From positions 39,340 through 103,339 of the forward strand of contig LBRD01000006.1 in assembly GCA_000991245.1 (NCBI GenBank): a DNA stretch of 64,000 bases. The letters run 5' to 3'. Origin of the DNA: Parcubacteria group bacterium GW2011_GWC1_36_108. GTDB taxonomy: Bacteria > Patescibacteriota > Minisyncoccia > Moranbacterales > GWC2-37-73. The notes under the pieces are model-generated. The model had not been told where the DNA came from, searched no databases, and saw only the letters and a program-made list of their open reading frames with translations. This document shows, piece by piece, positions 12,651 to 64,000 of the stretch (its first letter is position 1; every line of letters starts with the position of its first letter). The translations under genes and the position numbers were made by a program.

Positions 12651-12751
12651 GAGCTCATGTAACATGTAGCATATAGCATGTAGCATTTTTGAATTCAGGA
12701 ACCCAAATGCATTTTTGTTATATGTTATATGTTGTATGTTATATGTTTAAT

Positions 12752-17030: not shown

Positions 17031-17120
17031 TAGTCATGTAACATATAGCATATAGCATGCAACAAACAGTGACATCAACAATGTGTGTTTGAATTTTTGT
17101 TATATGTTGTATGTTTTATG

Positions 17121-17891
17121 TTATATGTTTTGATTTATTATTTCTGCAATTTTAACAAACTCCATTGGAATCAAGCTTTCTCTTCCAACCAAGACACCAT
17201 CCATTCCTGGATCAATGCAAAGTTGTTTGGCAGTTGCAGCTTTCACACTGCCTCCGTATAAAATCTTGATTTTTTCAGCCACTGGTTGACCAAAAGTATC
17301 GGCAAATATTTTCTTAATCAAAATCCTAACTTCCATAATTTCATCGCTGGTTGGAACACTATCACTACCAACAGCCCACACCGGTTCATATGCAATAACC
17401 ACTGTTGCAATTTTTGAAACTGGAACATCAGCAAGTCCTTCATGAATCTGTTTGATTATAACATCGGTTGTTTTTCCATTTTGTCTATCTTCAAGTGTTT
17501 CGCCTACACAACAAATTGGAGCAAGACCCGCATTTAAAATGCTATTTATTTTCATCTTTACAACCTCATTTGTTTCATTAAAATTTTTCCTTCGCTCACT
17601 GTGCCCAACAATAGCATACTCACCGCCAATGTTTTTCACCATTGGTGCAGAAATTTCACCCGTAAAAGATCCGCGATCTTCCCAGAAAATATTTTGCGCT
17701 CCTACGGAAAAATCATTTTTTTCAATTTTACCAACAAATGATTCGAGATGAATTGATGGTGGGCAAAGAACAATTTCACACTCAGAAACATTTTTTCCTT
17801 GCAACTCTTTTTTAAAAGACTCCAAATAGCGATCCCGTTCAGCAACGGTAAGAAGGTTCATTTTTAAATTTCCCACAATCAATTTACCCAT
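17121..17891 (-). CDS. tpiA: Triosephosphate isomerase
   Basis: VGNLKMN, AIVGHSERR and YEPVWAVG motifs. Confidence 0.9.
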   Translation of the reverse strand: MGKLIVGNLKMNLLTVAERDRYLESFKKELQGKNVSECEIVLCPPSIHLESFVGKIEKNDFSVGAQNIFWEDRGSFTGEISAPMVKNIGGEYAIVGHSERRKNFNETNEVVKMKINSILNAGLAPICCVGETLEDRQNGKTTDVIIKQIHEGLADVPVSKIATVVIAYEPVWAVGSDSVPTSDEIMEVRILIKKIFADTFGQPVAEKIKILYGGSVKAATAKQLCIDPGMDGVLVGRESLIPMEFVKIAEIINQNI

Positions 17892-18475: not shown

Positions 18476-19582
18476 TTATTTCTCCAGTTGTTTTCTTAAA
18501 AATTCTGCTGCTACTTCTGGCTGAAGTGTTGAAATTTCAATGCCAGTGTCCAATTCAAATCCAGCCCAAGTTGCAGTATGAGGCAAAATTTCAATATGCC
18601 AATGAAAATGAGGATAATCTCTCCCATCACACGGAGCGGAATGAATATAAAAATTGTAAGGAGGATCGTTGAGCGCTTTATAAATTGCGCCAAGAGCTTT
18701 ACCAAAGACTTCCGCCAACTTCACTTTCTGCTCATCATTAATTCTTTCAAAATATGGACTATGTTTTTTTGGCATCACATGAACTTCAAATGCTGCTCTT
18801 GAAGCAAACGGACAAAATGCAATAAACTCCTCATTTTCAAAAATCGTACGCTTTCCTTCTTCACTTTCATATTCAGCCATGGTGCAAAAAACACACTCTT
18901 TATTACTTTTATAATATTTTTCCGCACCATCTAATTCTAACTTGATATATGGAGCAACAACGGGAATAGCCATTAATTGTGAATGTGGATGTGAAATTGA
19001 AGCTCCCGCTTCCTTGCCATGATTATGAAAAACTGTTACATAATTGACACCTTTTTTATTCATATGCTCAAGATATCTATCTTGATAAGCGTCAAAAACC
19101 TCGGCAATCTCCATCGTATCCATCATTGCTAATTGACGATAATGATCACGAGTTACAACAATCTCATGATATCCAACACCAGACATTGCAAAATATGGTC
19201 CCTCAGAAATAGGATGTGGCAATTCTCCTTGAGAAAATGCGGGGTATTTATTAGGAAAAACACGCAGCGTCCAATCACCATCAGCTTTGTGATAAATCAA
19301 AACATCCTTTTCCTGACCACTTGCCACAGGATCTTCAAAAAGACATTCCTCAATCCCCTTATCATCTTTATTTCTTTCAAAATTAGCAAAATCACCAGGA
19401 CGCTTTGCGCGTCCCGTTGCAATAACAACCCAATCACCAGAAACAATATCTTGCCTCAACTCTGAAGCTGAGACTTCTTTTGTTTCCTCTTTGGGTTCGT
19501 TTTCTTTTGAATTGTTAATGGAAATATTCACAATTTCTTGCCCTGTTAAATTGTTTACCCAGTTGAATTTATTTATATTCAA
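18476..19582 (-). CDS. galT: Galactose-1-phosphate uridylyltransferase-family (HIT superfamily) enzyme. Start codon uncertain.
   Basis: SHPHSQLMA (HxHxQ) and the CVFC zinc motif. The first ~14 codons of the ORF overlap a conserved leader element, so a downstream (possibly GTG) start is likely. Confidence 0.7.
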   Translation of the reverse strand: MNINKFNWVNNLTGQEIVNISINNSKENEPKEETKEVSASELRQDIVSGDWVVIATGRAKRPGDFANFERNKDDKGIEECLFEDPVASGQEKDVLIYHKADGDWTLRVFPNKYPAFSQGELPHPISEGPYFAMSGVGYHEIVVTRDHYRQLAMMDTMEIAEVFDAYQDRYLEHMNKKGVNYVTVFHNHGKEAGASISHPHSQLMAIPVVAPYIKLELDGAEKYYKSNKECVFCTMAEYESEEGKRTIFENEEFIAFCPFASRAAFEVHVMPKKHSPYFERINDEQKVKLAEVFGKALGAIYKALNDPPYNFYIHSAPCDGRDYPHFHWHIEILPHTATWAGFELDTGIEISTLQPEVAAEFLRKQLEK

Positions 19583-19609
19583 CAGGGCGGAAACACTATT
19601 TAACTGGGG
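19541..19609. other. Structured leader element, copy a (overlaps the annotated galT start)
   Basis: CCCTGTTAAAT...[CCCAGTTGAAT-loop-ATTCAACAGGG]...ATTTAACTGGGG. Confidence 0.7.
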
Positions 19610-21368: not shown

Positions 21369-21508
21369 ATTTCAAAATATCCTTTTTTGTCATTCTCAGC
21401 TTGACTGGGAATCCAGCCCTTATCAGCCTCGGTAAATTTATTATTTCAAATATGTAGTAACGATTAGTGTCGGGTCTGGATTCCCGTTTTCACGGGAATG
21501 ACAATGAC

Positions 21509-22414: not shown

Positions 22415-23053
22415 TTAAAACTCTTCAATAATATCTTCAAAAACTTTCTCCACACTTTGGTTTCCATCCACTTCAATAAGCATTCCTTTTTCTCTGTATT
22501 TTTCAATAACTGGAACTGTGACTTCATAAAAAGTTTTTAGTCTTTTGGCCACGCCATCGGGAGTGTCATCGCCTCGTTGCATCACAGGTCCACCACAAGT
22601 AGGACAAGGATCTTCATCACCGGAAATGTGTTTACCTAAAATGAAATGCCGATAGCAAACTGTGCAAGCATAACGTTTTGTGATGCGAGCAACAGATTCA
22701 TCATATGGAAGAGTAATGTAAATTGCCTTATCTATCGGCCTGTTGAGCTCTTGCAGCATTTTTTCAATAGGCTCAATTTGTCCTATTGTTCGCGGCGCAC
22801 TGTCCAATATGACGCCCTTTTGGGAAGAAACTTTTTCTAAACTATTTTTAATAACATCAACCGTGATTTCATCCGGGATCATTTCCTTATGATCATTTAA
22901 TTCTTTGATTTTCTTTCCCAACTCTGAATTTTCTCTGCCAATTTCACGAAAAATTTGCCCTGTTTCAATATGCGCAAGATTATATTTTTCAGCCAAAAGA
23001 TCTGCTTGTGTGCCCTTGCCGGAGCCTTGAGGACCGAAGATAATTAGATTCAT
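22415..23053 (-). CDS. adk: Adenylate kinase with a Zn lid (CxxC...CxxC)
   Basis: MNLIIFGPQGSGKGTQA, CTVCYRH and CPTCGG. Start trimmed because the ORF N-terminus overlaps a repeat. Confidence 0.9.
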   Translation of the reverse strand: MNLIIFGPQGSGKGTQADLLAEKYNLAHIETGQIFREIGRENSELGKKIKELNDHKEMIPDEITVDVIKNSLEKVSSQKGVILDSAPRTIGQIEPIEKMLQELNRPIDKAIYITLPYDESVARITKRYACTVCYRHFILGKHISGDEDPCPTCGGPVMQRGDDTPDGVAKRLKTFYEVTVPVIEKYREKGMLIEVDGNQSVEKVFEDIIEEF

Positions 23054-23074
23054 GCAGCATGTATCATATAGCAT

Positions 23075-23148
23075 GTAACATAAGACTCAAAGAAAAAAGC
23101 TGAATCTGTATTTTTGTTATATGTTATATGTTGTATGTTATATGTTTT
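23075..23148. repeat. Representative intergenic tandem-heptamer inverted array (CATATAG-type arm, AT spacer, TTATATG-type arm)
   Basis: CATGTATCATATAGCATGTAACAT...TTGTTATATGTTATATGTTGTATGTTATATG. Same architecture at about 19 other intergenic sites. Confidence 0.8.
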
Positions 23149-24420: not shown

Positions 24421-24519
24421 AAAAGACAGCTTTTTAGGCTTTAGCTTCTTAGCTTCTTAGCCGTTAAATTAAATATAATTTTAATTTCCTGAAAAGCTGC
24501 GAAGCTGATGCCTGAGAAG

Positions 24520-26526: not shown

Positions 26527-26623
26527 ATATATTTAACTTACAACTCATAACTTATAACTTATAACGTGCCATGCTTGAGTTTTTTAAGTTGTTTGTTATT
26601 GGTTATTAGTTATTAGTTATTTC

Positions 26624-32205: not shown

Positions 32206-32282
32206 ATCTTTCTTAACTCATGGAACATGGAGCATGGAACATGCATTCTTGCTCTATGTTTTATGTTATGTGTTCTATGTTA

Positions 32283-32681
32283 TTATGCTCCTTGAAATAA
32301 TTCAATCTTATCTCCCTGTTTCAATGTTACTGTTGCTTTTTTGAATCCTGCCTTTGTCCCCATATGACGACCATATGCTTTCTTTTTAGACTTGATGTTC
32401 ACAACACTAACTTTTTCAACTTTCACACTATACATTCCCTCAATTGCCAATTTCACTTGTTTTTTTGTTGCGCTGTGGATAACCTTGAAAGTATACTTAT
32501 TGTCAGCCATTGCTTTGTGAGTCTTTTCAGTAATCCAAGGTTCAGTAAGAACACGATATGCAATATCCGAATTTTTTGCAGCAACAATCACTTCTTTTTT
32601 GTCAGCAGCCTTTTTAACTGCTTTCTTAACAGTCGGCTTTGAAGGGGTTGCTAATTCTTTTTTTTCTTCTATTACTGCCAT
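32283..32681 (-). CDS. rplW: Ribosomal protein uL23 (N-terminal extension)
   Basis: YRVLTEPWITEKTH...KVIHSATKKQVKLAIE. Confidence 0.85.
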   Translation of the reverse strand: MAVIEEKKELATPSKPTVKKAVKKAADKKEVIVAAKNSDIAYRVLTEPWITEKTHKAMADNKYTFKVIHSATKKQVKLAIEGMYSVKVEKVSVVNIKSKKKAYGRHMGTKAGFKKATVTLKQGDKIELFQGA

Positions 32682-32782
32682 ATATTTAACTTATAACTCA
32701 CAACTTACAACCGACAACGGTCTTCTCATCTTAATTGTGATTTTTCTTGTTGTTAGTTGTTAGTTGTTAGTGGTTTGTTAAT

Positions 32783-36285: not shown

Positions 36286-36642
36286 TTACTGAGAATATGA
36301 ATGTTTTTCCAGTTTGACGACGCGTTTTTCAAGTTTCTCAAATTGTTCAGCGTCAACCTTGCGTTTCAGTTCAAATTTCACCTCTACCATATCGTCTTGC
36401 AATCTGTCGATTTTTGTTTCGACTAATTCGAGTCGACCCTCAACACCACCAAGCCTAACTTCCACCTTTTCAAGTCTGTTCTCAACTTTTTCCAGCCTAT
36501 TATCTATACCATCAAGACGAACATTAGTCCCTGATTGAGCTTCAGCCAGTATCTTAATAGAATCATCCATTCTTTCAAGAATAGAGCCGATTTGATTTAC
36601 TGTGAAAACTTTTTCTTCTTTTGTTTGAGATGTATTTTTCAT
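36286..36642 (-). CDS. Hypothetical coiled-coil protein with RLEKVE-type heptad repeats
   Basis: IDNRLEKVENRLEKVEVRLGGVEGRLELVETKIDRL. Confidence 0.5.
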   Translation of the reverse strand: MKNTSQTKEEKVFTVNQIGSILERMDDSIKILAEAQSGTNVRLDGIDNRLEKVENRLEKVEVRLGGVEGRLELVETKIDRLQDDMVEVKFELKRKVDAEQFEKLEKRVVKLEKHSYSQ

Positions 36643-36681
36643 GTTTGTATTTTATAACTATAAATTAGGTGCGTCAAACCT

Positions 36682-36753
36682 GCCCCGTGAAATTGTTTAC
36701 CCTATTGAATTTATTTTATTCAATAGGGCGGTACTCAGCACTATTTCACTGGG
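36682..36753. other. Structured leader element, copy b (40 nt upstream of the coiled-coil gene)
   Basis: CCCCGTGAAAT...[CCCTATTGAAT-loop-ATTCAATAGGG]...ATTTCACTGGGG. Confidence 0.7.
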
Positions 36754-36764
36754 GTCAATTTTAA

Positions 36765-37031: not shown

Positions 37032-37328
37032 ATAAATTGACTTACAACTAACAATTCCCAACCAACAACACACTAATGCAAACTAGCTGCACACATGTAT
37101 TGTGGTTAAAAGTTATTAGTTATGAGTTGTGAATTATTGGTTGTTAGTTGTTTGTTATAAGTTGTTAGTTATTCATAAGCCTGGCCACTGCTCATAGTGA
37201 TATCATAGCACTTACCCAATATCACTGCAAGCATCAACGGCTGTGGATAACTTGGGGTAGGTTTTAGGTGTTAGGTTGTAGCTATTAGGTTTACAAAAAA
37301 ACAGCCCTTGCGAGCTGATTTTAGAGAT

Positions 37329-37349
37329 GGGTATTTAAATGGGTATTTA
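37329..37349. repeat. GGGTATTTAAAT(GGGTATTTA) near-palindromic motif, copy 1
   Basis: Direct reading. Confidence 0.8.
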
Positions 37350-37351
37350 TT

Positions 37352-46644: not shown

Positions 46645-46855
46645 GTAGCAAATCTGAAAGATATAAATTTTTTCAAATTTGAAGCATTGTTATATATTAT
46701 ACGTTGTATGTTAAACGATTAACTCTTGCCAATTCATAACATCCATGATATATTAAAACTTGTAATAAATCAAATGGTTATGGCATACAATTTATAGTGT
46801 TTAGCAAGAGATTGTTATATGTTATATGTTATATGTTATATGTTGTCTAAATATG

Positions 46856-50471: not shown

Positions 50472-50767
50472 TTTCCACATTTCTTTTTCCGCAAAAGAAA
50501 CGTGGAGCAAAGAAAACTCGCACCTGATGAAGGTACTGTGGCAAAAACTTCGCTCTTCGCTAAAATTTACACTTCGCGCCTACGCTTGCTAGCGGGCGCT
50601 ACGTTTTAAAATTTCTTAACGCGAAATCGCTTGTTTTTCGCCTACGTACTTCATATGGTGCAAAGGGAATGCGGGATGCAAATGCAACTAAGTAAGAGTG
50701 AGAATACTTTTTATTTTTTCGCTTGGAAGAGCACTTCCACGGGAAAAAATAAAAATGTATTCGAACG
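50472..50767. repeat. Composite intergenic repeat element (R1 module, 92-nt insertion, R2 hairpin module)
   Basis: Homologous at roughly 85-90% identity to 54661-54892 apart from the insertion. Confidence 0.8.
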
Positions 50768-54660: not shown

Positions 54661-54892
54661 TTTCCACATTTCTTTTTCCCGCAAAAAGAAACCTGGAGGA
54701 AAGAAAAGCTCGCACCGGATGAAGATACTGTGGCAAAAACTTCGTTCTTCACTAAAATCAAAGGGATGCGGAATGCAAAAAAAGCAAGAGTGAGAATGAT
54801 TTTTGTTTTTTCGCTTAAAACAAGTCTCATTGGCGTTATGTCAAAAGTTGCAATTGTTTTTCTGTGACAAAAACAAAAAGGCATTCTCACGA
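54661..54892. repeat. Composite intergenic repeat element (R1 plus R2 with a nested insertion)
   Basis: See 50472-50767. The R2 loop carries the insert AAAACAAGTCTCATTGGCGTTATGTCAAAAGTTGCAATTGTTTTTCTGTGACAAAAAC, which is also present at 61871-61927. Confidence 0.8.
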
Positions 54893-58512: not shown

Positions 58513-58539
58513 GTCATTCCCGTGAAAACGGGAATCCAG
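58513..58539. repeat. Hairpin repeat GTCATTCCCGTGAAAACGGGAATCCAG
   Basis: Reverse-complement copy at 21476-21502. Variant at 21389-21419. Confidence 0.8.
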
Positions 58540-61349: not shown

Positions 61350-61616
61350 TTAGCAAGAAGCGCAAGCTCCGTCGGTTACAACATATTCATTGCGATCTGC
61401 AAATTCTGCTTGTTTGCCCTTGTTCCATTGTGTCACTGGACGAATGTATCCAACAACACGAGAATAAACTTCTGTTTGTTGAAAATTCTTAAGAACAGGA
61501 TCTTTTTGATGACAAGCTTTGCATTTAGTGTAAACTTCACTACCAACTTTGTACGGCATATATTCCTCATTGTTTTCGATTGATTTGCCACAATCATGGC
61601 ATGTGTATTTTTCCAT
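61350..61616 (-). CDS. Stand-alone Zn-ribbon plus glycyl-radical domain protein, paralogous to the NrdD C-terminus
   Basis: CHDCGK...CKAC, then TEVYSRVVGYIRPVTQWNKGKQAEFADRNEY. This nearly matches the NrdD C-terminus TEVYSRVVGYIRPVEQWNKGKQAEFGDRKEY. Confidence 0.6.
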   Translation of the reverse strand: MEKYTCHDCGKSIENNEEYMPYKVGSEVYTKCKACHQKDPVLKNFQQTEVYSRVVGYIRPVTQWNKGKQAEFADRNEYVVTDGACASC

Positions 61617-61627
61617 ATTTTTTCTTG

Positions 61628-61723
61628 CCCCGTTAAATTGCGGTAATCCGCAATATTTAACTGGGGTTTTTTATTTTAATTTTTAGACCCCAGTGAAATA
61701 GTTGCTTCGCAAATTTCACGGGG
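61628..61723. other. Two tandem copies (opposite polarity) of the CCCCNGTNAAAT...ATTTNACNGGGG structured element in the leader of the small nrd ORF
   Basis: 61628-61666 and 61688-61723. Related to 19541-19609 and 36682-36753. Confidence 0.7.
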
Positions 61724-61753
61724 TAAATATTTAATCATCTCAATCAAGAACGT

Positions 61754-61945
61754 CTTCTTGATTAAAATGCTGTTTTAATAACAAGGAGTGAAAATACTTT
61801 TTATTTTTTCACTTGCACCCTCCGGGTATATATTGTCTGGACAAAATCAAAGATTTTGAAAGCCAATTAAAACAAGTCTCATTGGTGTTATGTCAAAGGT
61901 TGCAATTGTTTTTCTGTGACAAAAATAAAAATGTATTCTCACGAC
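61754..61945. repeat. Partial R1 tail plus R2 hairpin module with a nested insertion, downstream of nrdD
   Basis: GAGTGAAAATACTTTTTATTTTTTCACTTGC...AAAACAAGTCTCATTGGTGTTATGTCAAAGGTTGCAATTGTTTTTCTGTGACAAAAATAAAAATGTATTCTCACGA. Confidence 0.75.
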
Positions 61946-61953
61946 GCTAATCA

Positions 61954-64000
61954 TTATTTCTTCTTCCCCACTTTTTCAAGCTTCTTGGCGGGAACTGTGC
62001 CGCAATTTCCATTTGTATACTCTTTACGATCACCAAATTCTGCTTGCTTACCTTTGTTCCATTGCTCCACAGGACGGATATATCCTACTACGCGTGAATA
62101 CACTTCTGTTTTCTGCTCAATCACACATTTTGGACAAATAGGTTGTTCCCCTGGAATGTATCCATGCACAGGACAAATGCTAAAGGTTGGCGTAAGCGTG
62201 AAATATGGAAGTGCATAATTTTCAGCAATTTTTCTTACCAAATTTTTTACCATTTCAATGTCCCAAATACGTTCGCCCAAGAAGCCATGCAAAACTGTTC
62301 CACCTGTATATTTTGTTTGCAATTTTTCTTGCAAATCAAGAGCCTCGAACAAATCTTCAGTGAATTGCACTGGCAATTGAGATGAGTTTGTATAATACGG
62401 CTCAGCTCCATTTGTTCGAACAGCCAAATCATTGGCAAAAATAATATCTGGGTATTTCTCACGATCCTTTCTTGCCAAGCGATATGAGGTTCCTTCTGCA
62501 GGAGTAGCTTCCAAGTTATACATACTGCCAGTTTCTTCTTGGAATTTGAGCATTTTTTCTCTCATATGTGACAAGATTTCTTCTGCCAAAGCTTGTCCTT
62601 CTTTGGTGGTAATATCTTTGCCAATCAAATTAACCAAAGCTTCATTCAATCCAACCAAGCCAATGGTTGAAAAATGATTTGACCAATAAGCTCCTTGTCG
62701 CATCTTGATCGCATCTAAATAAAATTTTGTGTATGGATACAATCCTTTTTCAGTTAAACTTTCAACAAGTTTACGTTTAGTTTCCAAACTTTCTTTTGCA
62801 ATGTCCATCAAGGAATCAAGTTGTTTGAAAAATTCTTTTTTGTTTTTAGCAACATAACCAATTCGCGGCATATTAATCGTCACCACTCCAACACTACCAG
62901 TAAGTGGATTTGCTCCAAACAATCCTCCTCCACGCTTACGCAATTCGCGGTTATCAAGACGAAGTCGACAACACATTGAACGAGCATCGTCAGGATCCAT
63001 ATCTGAATTTACGAAGTTTGCAAAATATGGAATACCATATTTGGCTGTCATTTCCCAAACTGCATCAAAACGTTTGTCGCTCCAGTCGAAATTCTTAGAA
63101 ATATTGTAAGTTGGAATTGGGAAAGTGAAAATTCTTCCACTTGCATCTCCTTCAGTCATAACCTCAGCAAAAGCACGGTTGATGATGTTCATTTCCTCTT
63201 GAAATTCTCCATATGTTTCTTTTTGCGGTACACCTCCGGCAATCACAGCTTCTTTTGCCAGCGCAGTTGGAGCTGTCATATCCATTGTGATGTTAGAAAA
63301 TGGAGTTTGAAATCCAACACGAGTAGAAACATTCATATTGAAAACGAAAGACTGAATTTCTTGTTTTACTTGTGCATAAGTCAATTTATCATAGCGTACA
63401 AACGGAGCAAGCAAGGTGTCAAAATTTGAAAATGCTTGCGCTCCAGCAACTTCTCCTTGAAGAGTATAAATAAAATTAACCATTTGTCCCAAAATTGAAC
63501 CGAGATGTTTGGCAGGCTTGCAAGCAACTTTCCCCGGAACGCCAGTGAAACCTCTTCGAAGCAAATCTTGCAAATCCCAACCGCAACAATATGCTGCCAC
63601 CAATTGCAAATCATGAATGTGAAAATCTCCACTTTCATTAGCTTCGCGAATTTCTTTGGAATAAACACGATTCATCCAATATTTACTACTAACAATTGAA
63701 GCGATGTAATTATTAAGACCTTGCAAAGAATATGCCATATTAGCATTTTCCTTCACTTGCCAATCAATTTCTTGAATATATTTATCCACCAAACTTACCG
63801 CCTCATCCAATGAATGTTCCGTTTCACGAATTTTTCTGTGTTGTTCGCGATAAAGAATATATGACTTGGCAGTTTCATCAAAATCCAAAATCATCAGCAC
63901 GCGCTCAACCAAATCTTGCAATTGTTCGATGGCTGGAATTTCACCTTTTTTGAAATTTTTATTAAGCAACTGCACAACCTTATCTGCAACTCTTTTTGCG
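61954..64000 (-). CDS. nrdD: Anaerobic ribonucleoside-triphosphate reductase (class III). The N-terminus continues beyond the window end.
   Basis: C-terminal CPVHGY...CPKC zinc site and the glycyl-radical motif RVVGY. The first in-window residues (LQDLVERVLMILDFDETAKSYILYREQHRK) look like the end of an ATP cone, so the true start is upstream of 64000. Confidence 0.85.
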   Translation of the reverse strand, partial: AKRVADKVVQLLNKNFKKGEIPAIEQLQDLVERVLMILDFDETAKSYILYREQHRKIRETEHSLDEAVSLVDKYIQEIDWQVKENANMAYSLQGLNNYIASIVSSKYWMNRVYSKEIREANESGDFHIHDLQLVAAYCCGWDLQDLLRRGFTGVPGKVACKPAKHLGSILGQMVNFIYTLQGEVAGAQAFSNFDTLLAPFVRYDKLTYAQVKQEIQSFVFNMNVSTRVGFQTPFSNITMDMTAPTALAKEAVIAGGVPQKETYGEFQEEMNIINRAFAEVMTEGDASGRIFTFPIPTYNISKNFDWSDKRFDAVWEMTAKYGIPYFANFVNSDMDPDDARSMCCRLRLDNRELRKRGGGLFGANPLTGSVGVVTINMPRIGYVAKNKKEFFKQLDSLMDIAKESLETKRKLVESLTEKGLYPYTKFYLDAIKMRQGAYWSNHFSTIGLVGLNEALVNLIGKDITTKEGQALAEEILSHMREKMLKFQEETGSMYNLEATPAEGTSYRLARKDREKYPDIIFANDLAVRTNGAEPYYTNSSQLPVQFTEDLFEALDLQEKLQTKYTGGTVLHGFLGERIWDIEMVKNLVRKIAENYALPYFTLTPTFSICPVHGYIPGEQPICPKCVIEQKTEVYSRVVGYIRPVEQWNKGKQAEFGDRKEYTNGNCGTVPAKKLEKVGKKK

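Follow-up and report, generated by a model that had tools for sequence, protein, structure and literature searches.

Introduction

Several families of short bacterial repeats combine an unpaired tetranucleotide, a bulged hairpin and strand specificity, which is the geometry of repetitive extragenic palindromes (REPs) with their REP-associated tyrosine transposases (RAYTs) and of the ends of IS200/IS605 insertion sequences (PMC3733652, PMC6006769). REPs carry a GTAG or CGTC tag (Di Nocera et al. 2013, PMC3733652), and the Rickettsia palindromic elements (RPEs) are CGTC-tagged (PMC3733652). Here we describe a hairpin element with a tag of its own, four copies of which (a to d) lie in a 64,000-nucleotide (nt) chromosomal stretch, hereafter the window, from Parcubacteria group bacterium GW2011_GWC1_36_108 (contig LBRD01000006.1). 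We consider it likely that these copies belong to a REP/RPE-like family of tagged palindromes, small insertion elements whose mobility is at the level of DNA. The original prediction for this locus placed its emphasis on a leader RNA and kept a REP-like element as a fallback; it is partly supported by our analysis, in its fallback and not in its emphasis.

Results

A tagged hairpin unit in simple and composite copies

The half-site CCCNGTNAAAT occurs eight times in the window, as four inverted pairs CCCNGTNAAAT...ATTTNACNGGG, where shuffled sequence leads one to expect 0.35 (maximum 2, with none of 100 shuffles reaching 8); the four copies lie where the original prediction had put them (Table 1). 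A scan for arm pairs that tolerated three mismatches returned only copies a-d in the window and nothing in 20 shuffles. All four fold well on either strand (z -4.5 to -5.8). The unit they share consists of an unpaired 5' tag of the form YTTR (TTTA, CTTG or CCTG), which in all four copies is a tetranucleotide immediately 5' of the CCCC arm, an 11-bp stem CCCCGTNAAAT/ATTTN'AC(T)GGGG with one bulged T, and a free interior. We refer to the strand bearing the tag (CCCCGT...AC-T-GGGG) as forward. Copy d has the opposite orientation to a, b and c, and its CCCCGT...ACTGGGG sequence reads on the minus strand.

The interior is without constraint: T-rich loops, a mini-hairpin or two, and whole further copies of the element all occur there. 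Simple copies measure 36-42 nt and composites 69-76 nt. The interior hairpin of copy c is also found in other Moranbacteria copies, and that of copy d is a GCGAAGC mini-hairpin. A fifth copy, with two interior hairpins, lies about 1 kb past the right end of the window in a locus of the same species (L138, 587-653); its forward strand is the gene strand, as in d.

Copies a and b differ in their outer stems as had been described (GTTAAAT/ATTTAAC versus GTGAAAT/ATTTCAC), and we found a second compensatory change in their inner hairpin. Such changes are as expected if the hairpin is needed for propagation. The inner hairpin comes with a GTTTA tag and CCCNNTTGAAT arms of its own. A covariance model, built from the copies of other genomes and then run on the window and on protein-anchored loci, aligns it as a degenerate member of the family, and in copy a aligns this member (UGUUUACCCAGUUGAAU...) together with its tag. 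The shared inner hairpin and the conserved unpaired words that had been noted in a and b are indeed present; because the inner hairpin is itself a family member, however, those words are the junctions of a nested composite. Copies a and b have these junctions in common and are about 85% identical (judged by eye; the two repeat blocks are 89% and 81% identical), and the composite as a whole was therefore copied.

The unit is present or absent as a block among relatives

For the spacer that holds copies c and d, upstream of an 88-residue open reading frame (ORF) next to nrdD, we gathered 28 metagenomic loci encoding relatives of this ORF and examined 22 orthologous spacers. The same-species locus carries both copies. 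Two loci whose small ORF is 97% identical in amino acids (L129 and L130) have an uninterrupted A-rich spacer instead, and two clean alignment gaps remove d and c, tags included. In about 17 of the 22, the spacer is just A-rich sequence, and different members of the family occupy the same spacer in L147, L143/144, L146 and L108. The element of L108 stands 10 nt before the same small ORF, with another interior and with G-C in place of T-A at the variable pair of the stem.

The spacer between the GT2 glycosyltransferase gene and galT gives a similar picture in four relatives, ordered here by GalT identity: L125 (93%) has the same composite as copy a, L126 (85%) an empty, uninterrupted spacer, L128 (83%) an unrelated small hairpin, and L127 (79%) a simple copy. 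The word CAAG, which is the CTTG tag reversed, was seen solely where the element occurs. These comparisons show that the unit comes and goes as a whole in the A-rich spacers between genes.

Copies inside genes and inside each other

At least six copies are intragenic. An RmlD gene carries a 45-nt copy in frame, and solved RmlD structures in the PDB align on both sides of it, with the extra residues unmatched exactly there. In two Moranbacteria species, grpE has a 39-nt copy after codon 7. Further copies interrupt the genes of a vWA protein (57 nt), a DegT-type aminotransferase, the NrdD N-terminus and a DUF167 protein. Nested structures of the form 5'arm-tag-5'arm...3'arm-3'arm were found in L025, L070, L035, L052 and L054. 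Their sequence is explained exactly by a tag-plus-hairpin unit that would have inserted into the loop of another copy, and copies a and b are composites of this kind.

A family with a near-invariant stem in many phyla

We scanned one genome per species for the exact pattern CCCCGTNAAAT-N13-43-ATTTNACTGGGG, whose spacings of 13-43 nt leave composites of the a/b type outside its range. The pattern matched at least 117 loci, against about eight expected by chance (hand arithmetic from 21 fixed bases, 596 Gb and 31 spacings). By record title, the matches listed include 56 of Desulfobacterota type, 32 from many classes of Patescibacteria, 10 from Bacteroidota and 3 from Cloacimonadota; the remaining matches listed belong to scattered lineages, among them one archaeon (a Woesearchaeota contig) and two cultured strains. 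Within 2.9 million viral contigs the pattern was found three times. Phage origin was considered and rejected, given those three matches and no real similarity to phage records.

In 120 distinct copies the 5' flank reads G-Y-T-T-R, with a purine at position -1 in all and T at -2 in 85%, while the 3' flank is barely conserved. The variable stem pair of these copies is G-C in 58, T-A in 43, A-T in 3, C-G in 3 and unpaired in 13. In an unbiased set of copies, found by the covariance model in protein-anchored loci, seven of the 11 stem pairs are constant, three vary in one sequence each, and the central pair alone covaries freely. The covariation that had been taken as a sign of a selected structure is therefore real but limited to one stem pair of 11, the others being near-invariant across phyla. 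A stem so nearly fixed looks less like a generic RNA helix than like a site recognised by its sequence. A covariance-model search of relatives, of the kind proposed as a check on the locus, recovered further members. Copies of the family are found in ORFs and in the interiors of other copies as well as before genes.

Rfam 15, searched at gathering and E-value thresholds with the window and with the elements of 19 loci, assigned no family; at the loci it found only tRNAs, besides chance miRNA-like matches with E >= 0.008. A full-text literature search with the arm sequences, and with REP, palindromic-element and miniature inverted-repeat transposable element (MITE) terms combined with these taxa, returned nothing relevant. 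Judged by these searches and by the pattern matches, the family is uncatalogued and very widespread, its tag new and its phylogenetic range unusual.

Some Desulfobacterota contigs (L054, JAFDKF010000108.1, 1-8000; L060; L083; L085; L117) carry series of copies, nearly all co-oriented within a contig, between AbiEii, PIN/MazE and MqsA-like modules. Arm types are mixed on these contigs, and one 5' arm has its nearest 3' arm 1.5 kb off.

The tag-bearing strand is the better-folding one

Of the C-GNA-G triloops in the interior mini-hairpins, 30 lie on the forward strand and 2 on the reverse. When interiors were folded with RNA parameters, the forward strand came out as the more stable in 64 copies and as the less stable in 17 (p = 3e-7); split by group, the counts are 21 versus 9 in Patescibacteria, 28 versus 7 in Desulfobacterota and 15 versus 1 in the rest. 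Folding of the interiors with DNA parameters gave no strand difference, and the asymmetry therefore rests on G.T/G.U pairs and on the identity of the GNA loops. Triloops of the GNA type closed by C-G reportedly form exceptionally stable DNA mini-hairpins, as known from the work of Hirao and Yoshizawa and the tables of SantaLucia and Hicks; they are a pointer to single-stranded DNA, not a proof of it. The forward strand is the one selected to fold. An earlier count of wobble versus A.C pairs on a relaxed arm scan was too contaminated by nested and reverse matches and was replaced by the triloop and interior-folding tests.

The forward strand of copies a, b and c is antisense to the genes. By hand counts from tables that rest on crude longest-ORF gene calls, it is antisense in 25 of 25 Patescibacteria matches with co-oriented neighbours, and copies within a Desulfobacterota locus are co-oriented in 28 of 29. 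Gene direction does not predict element orientation in Desulfobacterota. In 30 of 35 Patescibacteria loci and 30 of 41 Desulfobacterota loci the forward and the C-rich strand coincide, and orientation seems to be tied to the replication strand rather than to the neighbouring gene. A possible reason is that palindromes with the stronger hairpin on the lagging-strand template would be lost more often.

Position relative to genes and promoters

The window comes from a Moranbacteria-like member of the Patescibacteria, whose nearest GalT homologues carry Moranbacteria names, and loci identical to it occur in GCA_003475885.1, GCA_003545005.1 and several metagenomes. It holds a ribosomal protein operon, secY, adk, map, ruvX, the GT2 glycosyltransferase gene, galT, tpiA and hydrogenase genes, nearly all on the minus strand, and its plus strand is C-rich over the full length (GC skew -0.13 to -0.22). 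The copies lie among these core genes, 17-25 kb apart.

Copy a occupies the spacer between the GT2 gene and galT and ends 5 nt (its arm 9 nt) before a GTG codon at 19531-19529, whereas the automatic gene call (18476-19582) places the galT start at a TTG (19582) within the copy. GalT is called with 368-369 residues in carriers of the element (L001-L004, L125), and with 341-342 residues, from a GTG or ATG just downstream, in L126 and L128, which are without it. The longer N-terminus probably exists in the annotation only, as an artefact of the insertion; the element would thus shift called gene starts, GalT being annotated 26-27 residues longer in two carriers than in two compared relatives without it. 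Copy c ends 11 nt before the ATG of the 88-residue ORF (61616). Downstream of copy b, the -10 box of a predicted promoter ends 6 nt before the ATG; the mRNA is therefore predicted to be leaderless, with copy b upstream of the promoter. Most spacers of the window, inspected by eye, have no ribosome-binding site of GGAGG type, and several end in TATAAT-like hexamers near the ATG. For the genes of the window the effects are by-products: with copies a, c and d a stable hairpin enters the intercistronic transcript, and with copy b one stands just upstream of a promoter.

At low-GC loci, which are mainly Patescibacteria, the tag side faces a start codon at 8-12 nt (eight cases) or at 39-44 nt (eight cases), with nothing comparable on the other side. 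The class at about 40 nt has a promoter between hairpin and ATG, and in Paceibacterota a conserved module of hairpin, about 40 nt and ATG precedes nusA, dnaK, mutM, rnc, rlmH and other genes. The two distances may mark the places where insertion is tolerated, namely upstream of a promoter or about 10 nt before an operon-internal start. The placement in 5' leaders that had been proposed survives as a positional bias before starts in Patescibacteria, but not as a rule, given that copy b lies upstream of its predicted promoter and that copies are also intragenic and nested.

Table 1. Copies of the element and other features in the window
Feature	Position	Strand	Details
Copy a, composite	19537..19609	+	tag CTTG 19537-19540; outer arms CCCTGTTAAAT 19541-19551 and ATTTAAC-T-GGGG 19598-19609
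Copy a, inner degenerate member	19554..19587	+	tag TTTA 19554-19557; arms CCCAGTTGAAT 19558-19568 and ATTCAACAGGG 19577-19587
Copy b, composite like a	36679..36754	+	tag CCTG 36679-36682; outer arms 36683-36693 and 36743-36754
Copy b, nested inner copy	36696-36728	+	TTTA + CCCTATTGAAT...ATTCAATAGGG
Copy c, simple	61624..61666	+	tag CTTG 61624-61627; arms 61628-61638 and 61655-61666; interior hairpin TGCGGTAATCCGCA; 54.1 bits
Copy d, simple, opposite orientation	61688..61727	-	tag TTTA (plus strand TAAA 61724-61727); CCCCGTGAAAT...ATTTCAC-T-GGGG; 52.9 bits
Predicted sigma-70-like promoter TTGACG-17-TAAAAT	36649..36677	-	between copy b and the ATG at 36642; 10/12 consensus matches
Inverted heptamer/octamer arrays	12655-12751, 17031-17131, 23050-23148, 24421-24519, 26527-26623, 32206-32283, 32682-32782, 37032-37351, 46645-46846, others		

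Other repeats and neighbouring genes

Two hairpins of the window at 21476-21502 and 58513-58539 (GGATTCCCGTTTTCACGGGAATGAC) had been taken to share the core of the element. Their 8-bp stem with a GAAA/TTTC loop is a different architecture, and by this architecture we read the GGATTCCCGTTTTCACGGGAATGAC/GTCATTCCCGTGAAAACGGGAATCC hairpins as a separate repeat family. The palindromic repeat GTCATTCCCGTGAAAACGGGAATCC occurs at these two positions and upstream of the small nrd ORF in L129/L130 and L146, is often followed by GGATCCCC...GGGGATGACA, and resembles a repeat that yields spurious 'RFRGND/PEDD' peptides in many genomes.

Many spacers of the window are made up of a pair of tandem-repeat arrays with 7-8-nt units, one array inverted relative to the other (AACATAT.../...GTTATAT, for instance), and the units differ between spacers. 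Their folding strongly favours the plus strand, which is antisense to the genes; in one example it gives -38.9 kcal/mol, against -20.5 kcal/mol for the gene strand. Copies of the CCCC element from other phyla frequently lie within 7-8-nt tandem arrays, the final unit of which is tag-like.

A module of about 170 nt is present at 50513-50725, 54705-54892 and 61779-61944 (repeats D7, D9 and D12; 84-94% identical) and holds an inverted repeat AGTGAAAA...TTTTCACT. One of its copies lies in the spacer between nrdD and the small ORF, and the orthologous L108 spacer is without it. The small ORF itself (61350-61616, minus strand) repeats a C-terminal stretch of the adjacent 673-residue nrdD (61954-63975), namely its cysteine-rich (CxxC) and RVVGY glycyl-radical-like segment, with 80% nucleotide identity over 95 nt, and is kept just downstream of nrdD in at least 22 metagenomic relatives; it could be a GrcA-like 'spare part' for the class III ribonucleotide reductase.

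At syntenic positions some relatives have small inserted genes, which encode a four-helix-bundle protein ('23S rRNA IVP', PF05635) or a GIY-YIG protein (L125 15086-15862; L127 16998-17339 and 7889-8200). Both families also occur in a few element-bearing loci, without fixed spacing. A hammerhead-like reading of a UGAUGA flank, noticed by eye, was discarded, as it has no stem II.

Discussion

Empty sites in relatives, in-frame and nested copies and the orientation of copy d all bear out the REP-like DNA element that the original prediction had kept in reserve. The comparisons show the unit gained or lost in A-rich spacers, in the loops of other copies, where it gave composites such as a and b that then spread as a unit, and occasionally in frame within genes. 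It would move through a single-stranded DNA form, and a putative trans-acting nuclease or transposase would read the tag, the bulge and the invariant stem, much as HUH/Y1 enzymes act on REPs and IS200/IS605 ends.

Several observations weigh against this reading. Mobility is read from comparison between genomes, and no target-site duplication is readable in the low-complexity A/T flanks. No transposase, recombinase or other protein family recurs within about 4 kb of the copies in 117 loci, although a single-copy gene elsewhere would escape such a search; in an all-against-all BLAST of 2,308 ORFs from 117 loci, the largest families (UvrA, sensor kinases, four-helix-bundle proteins, PIN, HicB) include none at a constant distance, and a Pfam scan of the Desulfobacterota arrays for integrases and transposases returned only housekeeping and toxin-antitoxin genes. 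No long element bounded by the arms was found, and 'orphan' arms are mostly copies with one mismatch or without the bulge. Copy number is modest, with four copies in 64 kb of the window and about ten in 232 kb of relatives, and a 23-nt stem that stays almost identical from phylum to phylum is not what one usually sees in selfish repeats, as a rule confined to a lineage. Finally, the start-codon distance classes and the repeated, independent occupation of the nrd spacer (L108, L143, L146, L147) could point to a selected function rather than to neutral survival, although the start-codon bias can also be explained by insertion into, or survival in, short A-rich spacers.

Those last features are also what an unlikely alternative would build on, in which the hairpin is a structure selected by the host, for protection of the upstream message at its 3' end, for insulation of a promoter against read-through or as a processing mark, and homogenised by gene conversion. 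This explanation, which is compatible with a mobile origin, would account for two sharp distance classes on one side of the element only, for the promoter module before unrelated housekeeping genes in Paceibacterota and for the separate lineages that fill the nrd small-ORF spacer, and REPs have been reported with such roles (PMC3733652). Most close relatives, however, manage without the element at the same genes; intragenic and nested copies have no such role, the mRNA-sense strand folds worse, and copy d and the copy just outside the window are oppositely oriented. The emphasis on a cis-regulatory RNA, carried in the 5' leaders of three genes (galT, the coiled-coil gene and the small nrd ORF), runs into more of the same trouble, and we give it hardly any credence. 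The hairpins do stand close upstream of three starts, one stem pair does covary, and GGGG could in principle be a sequestered ribosome-binding site 8-12 nt before the ATG. Against this, the orthologous leaders of close relatives are without the element, copies interrupt ORFs in frame, copy b lies upstream of a predicted promoter, copy d is inverted and the better-folding strand is antisense, so that the sense strand is the less optimised; the element also precedes or interrupts dozens of unrelated genes in many phyla and matches no Rfam family.

It is very unlikely that the copies are intrinsic terminators on the plus strand that halt antisense transcription at the 5' borders of genes. The forward strand folds better, and of the plus-strand T-run that had been claimed for each copy, a T-rich run does follow the forward hairpin in a and c. 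There is none in b, d and most Desulfobacterota copies, and where present it is the complement of the A-rich spacer before start codons, which relatives without the element have as well. A scan for intrinsic terminators called none at any copy, the gene strand showing the hairpin followed by YAAR and A-rich sequence with no U-tract; nor do plus-strand genes or promoters feed into the copies, and intragenic copies cannot terminate. Rather improbable, too, is a cassette-type recombination site, in which the arms would be half-sites for a recombinase acting on folded single strands, as integron integrase does on attC, and the interior would be cargo. Co-oriented elements in Desulfobacterota do separate small toxin-antitoxin modules every 0.8-1.9 kb or so, ATTTAAC and GTTAAAT, the two 7-bp boxes, agree with the attC R''/R' consensus RYYYAAC/GTTRRRY, some arm pairs are chimeric (10 G/A combinations, with mixed arm types in L054), one base is constantly extrahelical, and the strand that folds is the C-rich one, an arrangement also seen in chromosomal integrons. 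Yet the box order is opposite to that of attC, GTNAAAT entering the hairpin and ATTTNAC leaving it; the loci examined hold no integrase, most copies are solitary and among housekeeping genes, and cargo-bearing versions were not convincingly found.

Beyond membership in a tagged palindromic family, a bolder and, in our judgement, doubtful proposal is that the hairpin is the recognition end or recombination site of an unrecognised single-stranded DNA mobile system common to Patescibacteria, Desulfobacterota, Bacteroidota and other groups. Its putative enzyme would read the invariant stem, the bulge and the YTTR tag and be neither a classical RAYT nor an integron integrase, its cargo would range from a few bases to gene cassettes, and the tandem arrays would be possible footprints of its activity.

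If the insertion-element reading is true, Patescibacteria, whose reduced genomes are usually deemed poor in mobile DNA, share a hairpin almost base for base with the large genomes of sulfate reducers and Bacteroidota, which would imply a common trans-acting enzyme or frequent transfer across phyla. The element adds peptides to housekeeping proteins, and strong hairpins beside promoters and start codons matter for annotation and for expression models in these uncultured lineages. The fixed stem is an easy search target, and the matches in the cultured Sunxiuqinia rutila and Rhizobiales AFS086932 could be an experimental handle if they are true members of the family.

Comparison with known systems

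Compared with attC sites, the element would likewise be read as a folded single strand. Its 7-bp boxes are conserved, one base is always extrahelical and the terminal structure varies greatly, as in attC, and in some Desulfobacterota loci it stands co-oriented between small cassettes. Its order, in contrast, is GTNAAAT...ATTTNAC on both strands, a reversal that rules out attC identity; the stem has CCCC/GGGG at its base, neither an integrase nor an attI was found among the neighbours examined, and most copies are solitary among core genes. IS200/IS605 ends and palindrome-associated transposable elements (PATEs) have in common with it a bulged hairpin with a conserved tetranucleotide nearby, strand specificity and an orientation tied to the replication strand. 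In those elements, however, the hairpins at the two ends differ from each other, and the elements contain tnpA/tnpB or are derived from them. Their active strand is on the lagging-strand template, whereas the better-folding strand of our element is on the C-rich strand, presumably the leading-strand template.

Correia elements, enterobacterial repetitive intergenic consensus (ERIC) sequences and other MITEs, as well as the promoter early stem-loop (PeSL) cassettes of T4-type phages, are also small non-coding inverted-repeat units that lie beside genes and bring or abut promoters. The arms of the element act as terminal inverted repeats, and the Paceibacterota module of hairpin, promoter and ATG resembles MITE and PeSL promoter cassettes. 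The element is nevertheless much shorter, with no recognisable target-site duplication or parent insertion sequence, and its pattern matched only three of 2.9 million viral contigs. With RPEs it shares in-frame insertion into ORFs that adds a short peptide, occurrence between genes as well, and no known transposase. RPEs are set apart by length, taxa and tag, being 100-150 bp long and found in Rickettsia only, whereas the element measures 36-75 nt and extends across phyla.

REPs, too, are close to the element in form. Like the element, they are short imperfect palindromes (20-40 nt) with bulge asymmetry and an unpaired tetranucleotide tag at one end; as with the copies examined here, they lie mostly between co-directional genes and sometimes inside genes, form inverted pairs such as c/d, vary in abundance between relatives and imply folding as single strands. 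Unlike REPs, the element has a YTTR tag, neither GTAG nor CGTC, with no RAYT gene found nearby; it would number tens of copies per genome, going by the stretches scanned, rather than the hundreds of REPs, its stem is near-identical across phyla where REP families are specific to a species or genus, and its interior varies freely and can hold nested copies. The cross-phylum stem, the new tag, nesting, entry into ORFs and strand-specific folding together set the element apart from an ordinary REP.

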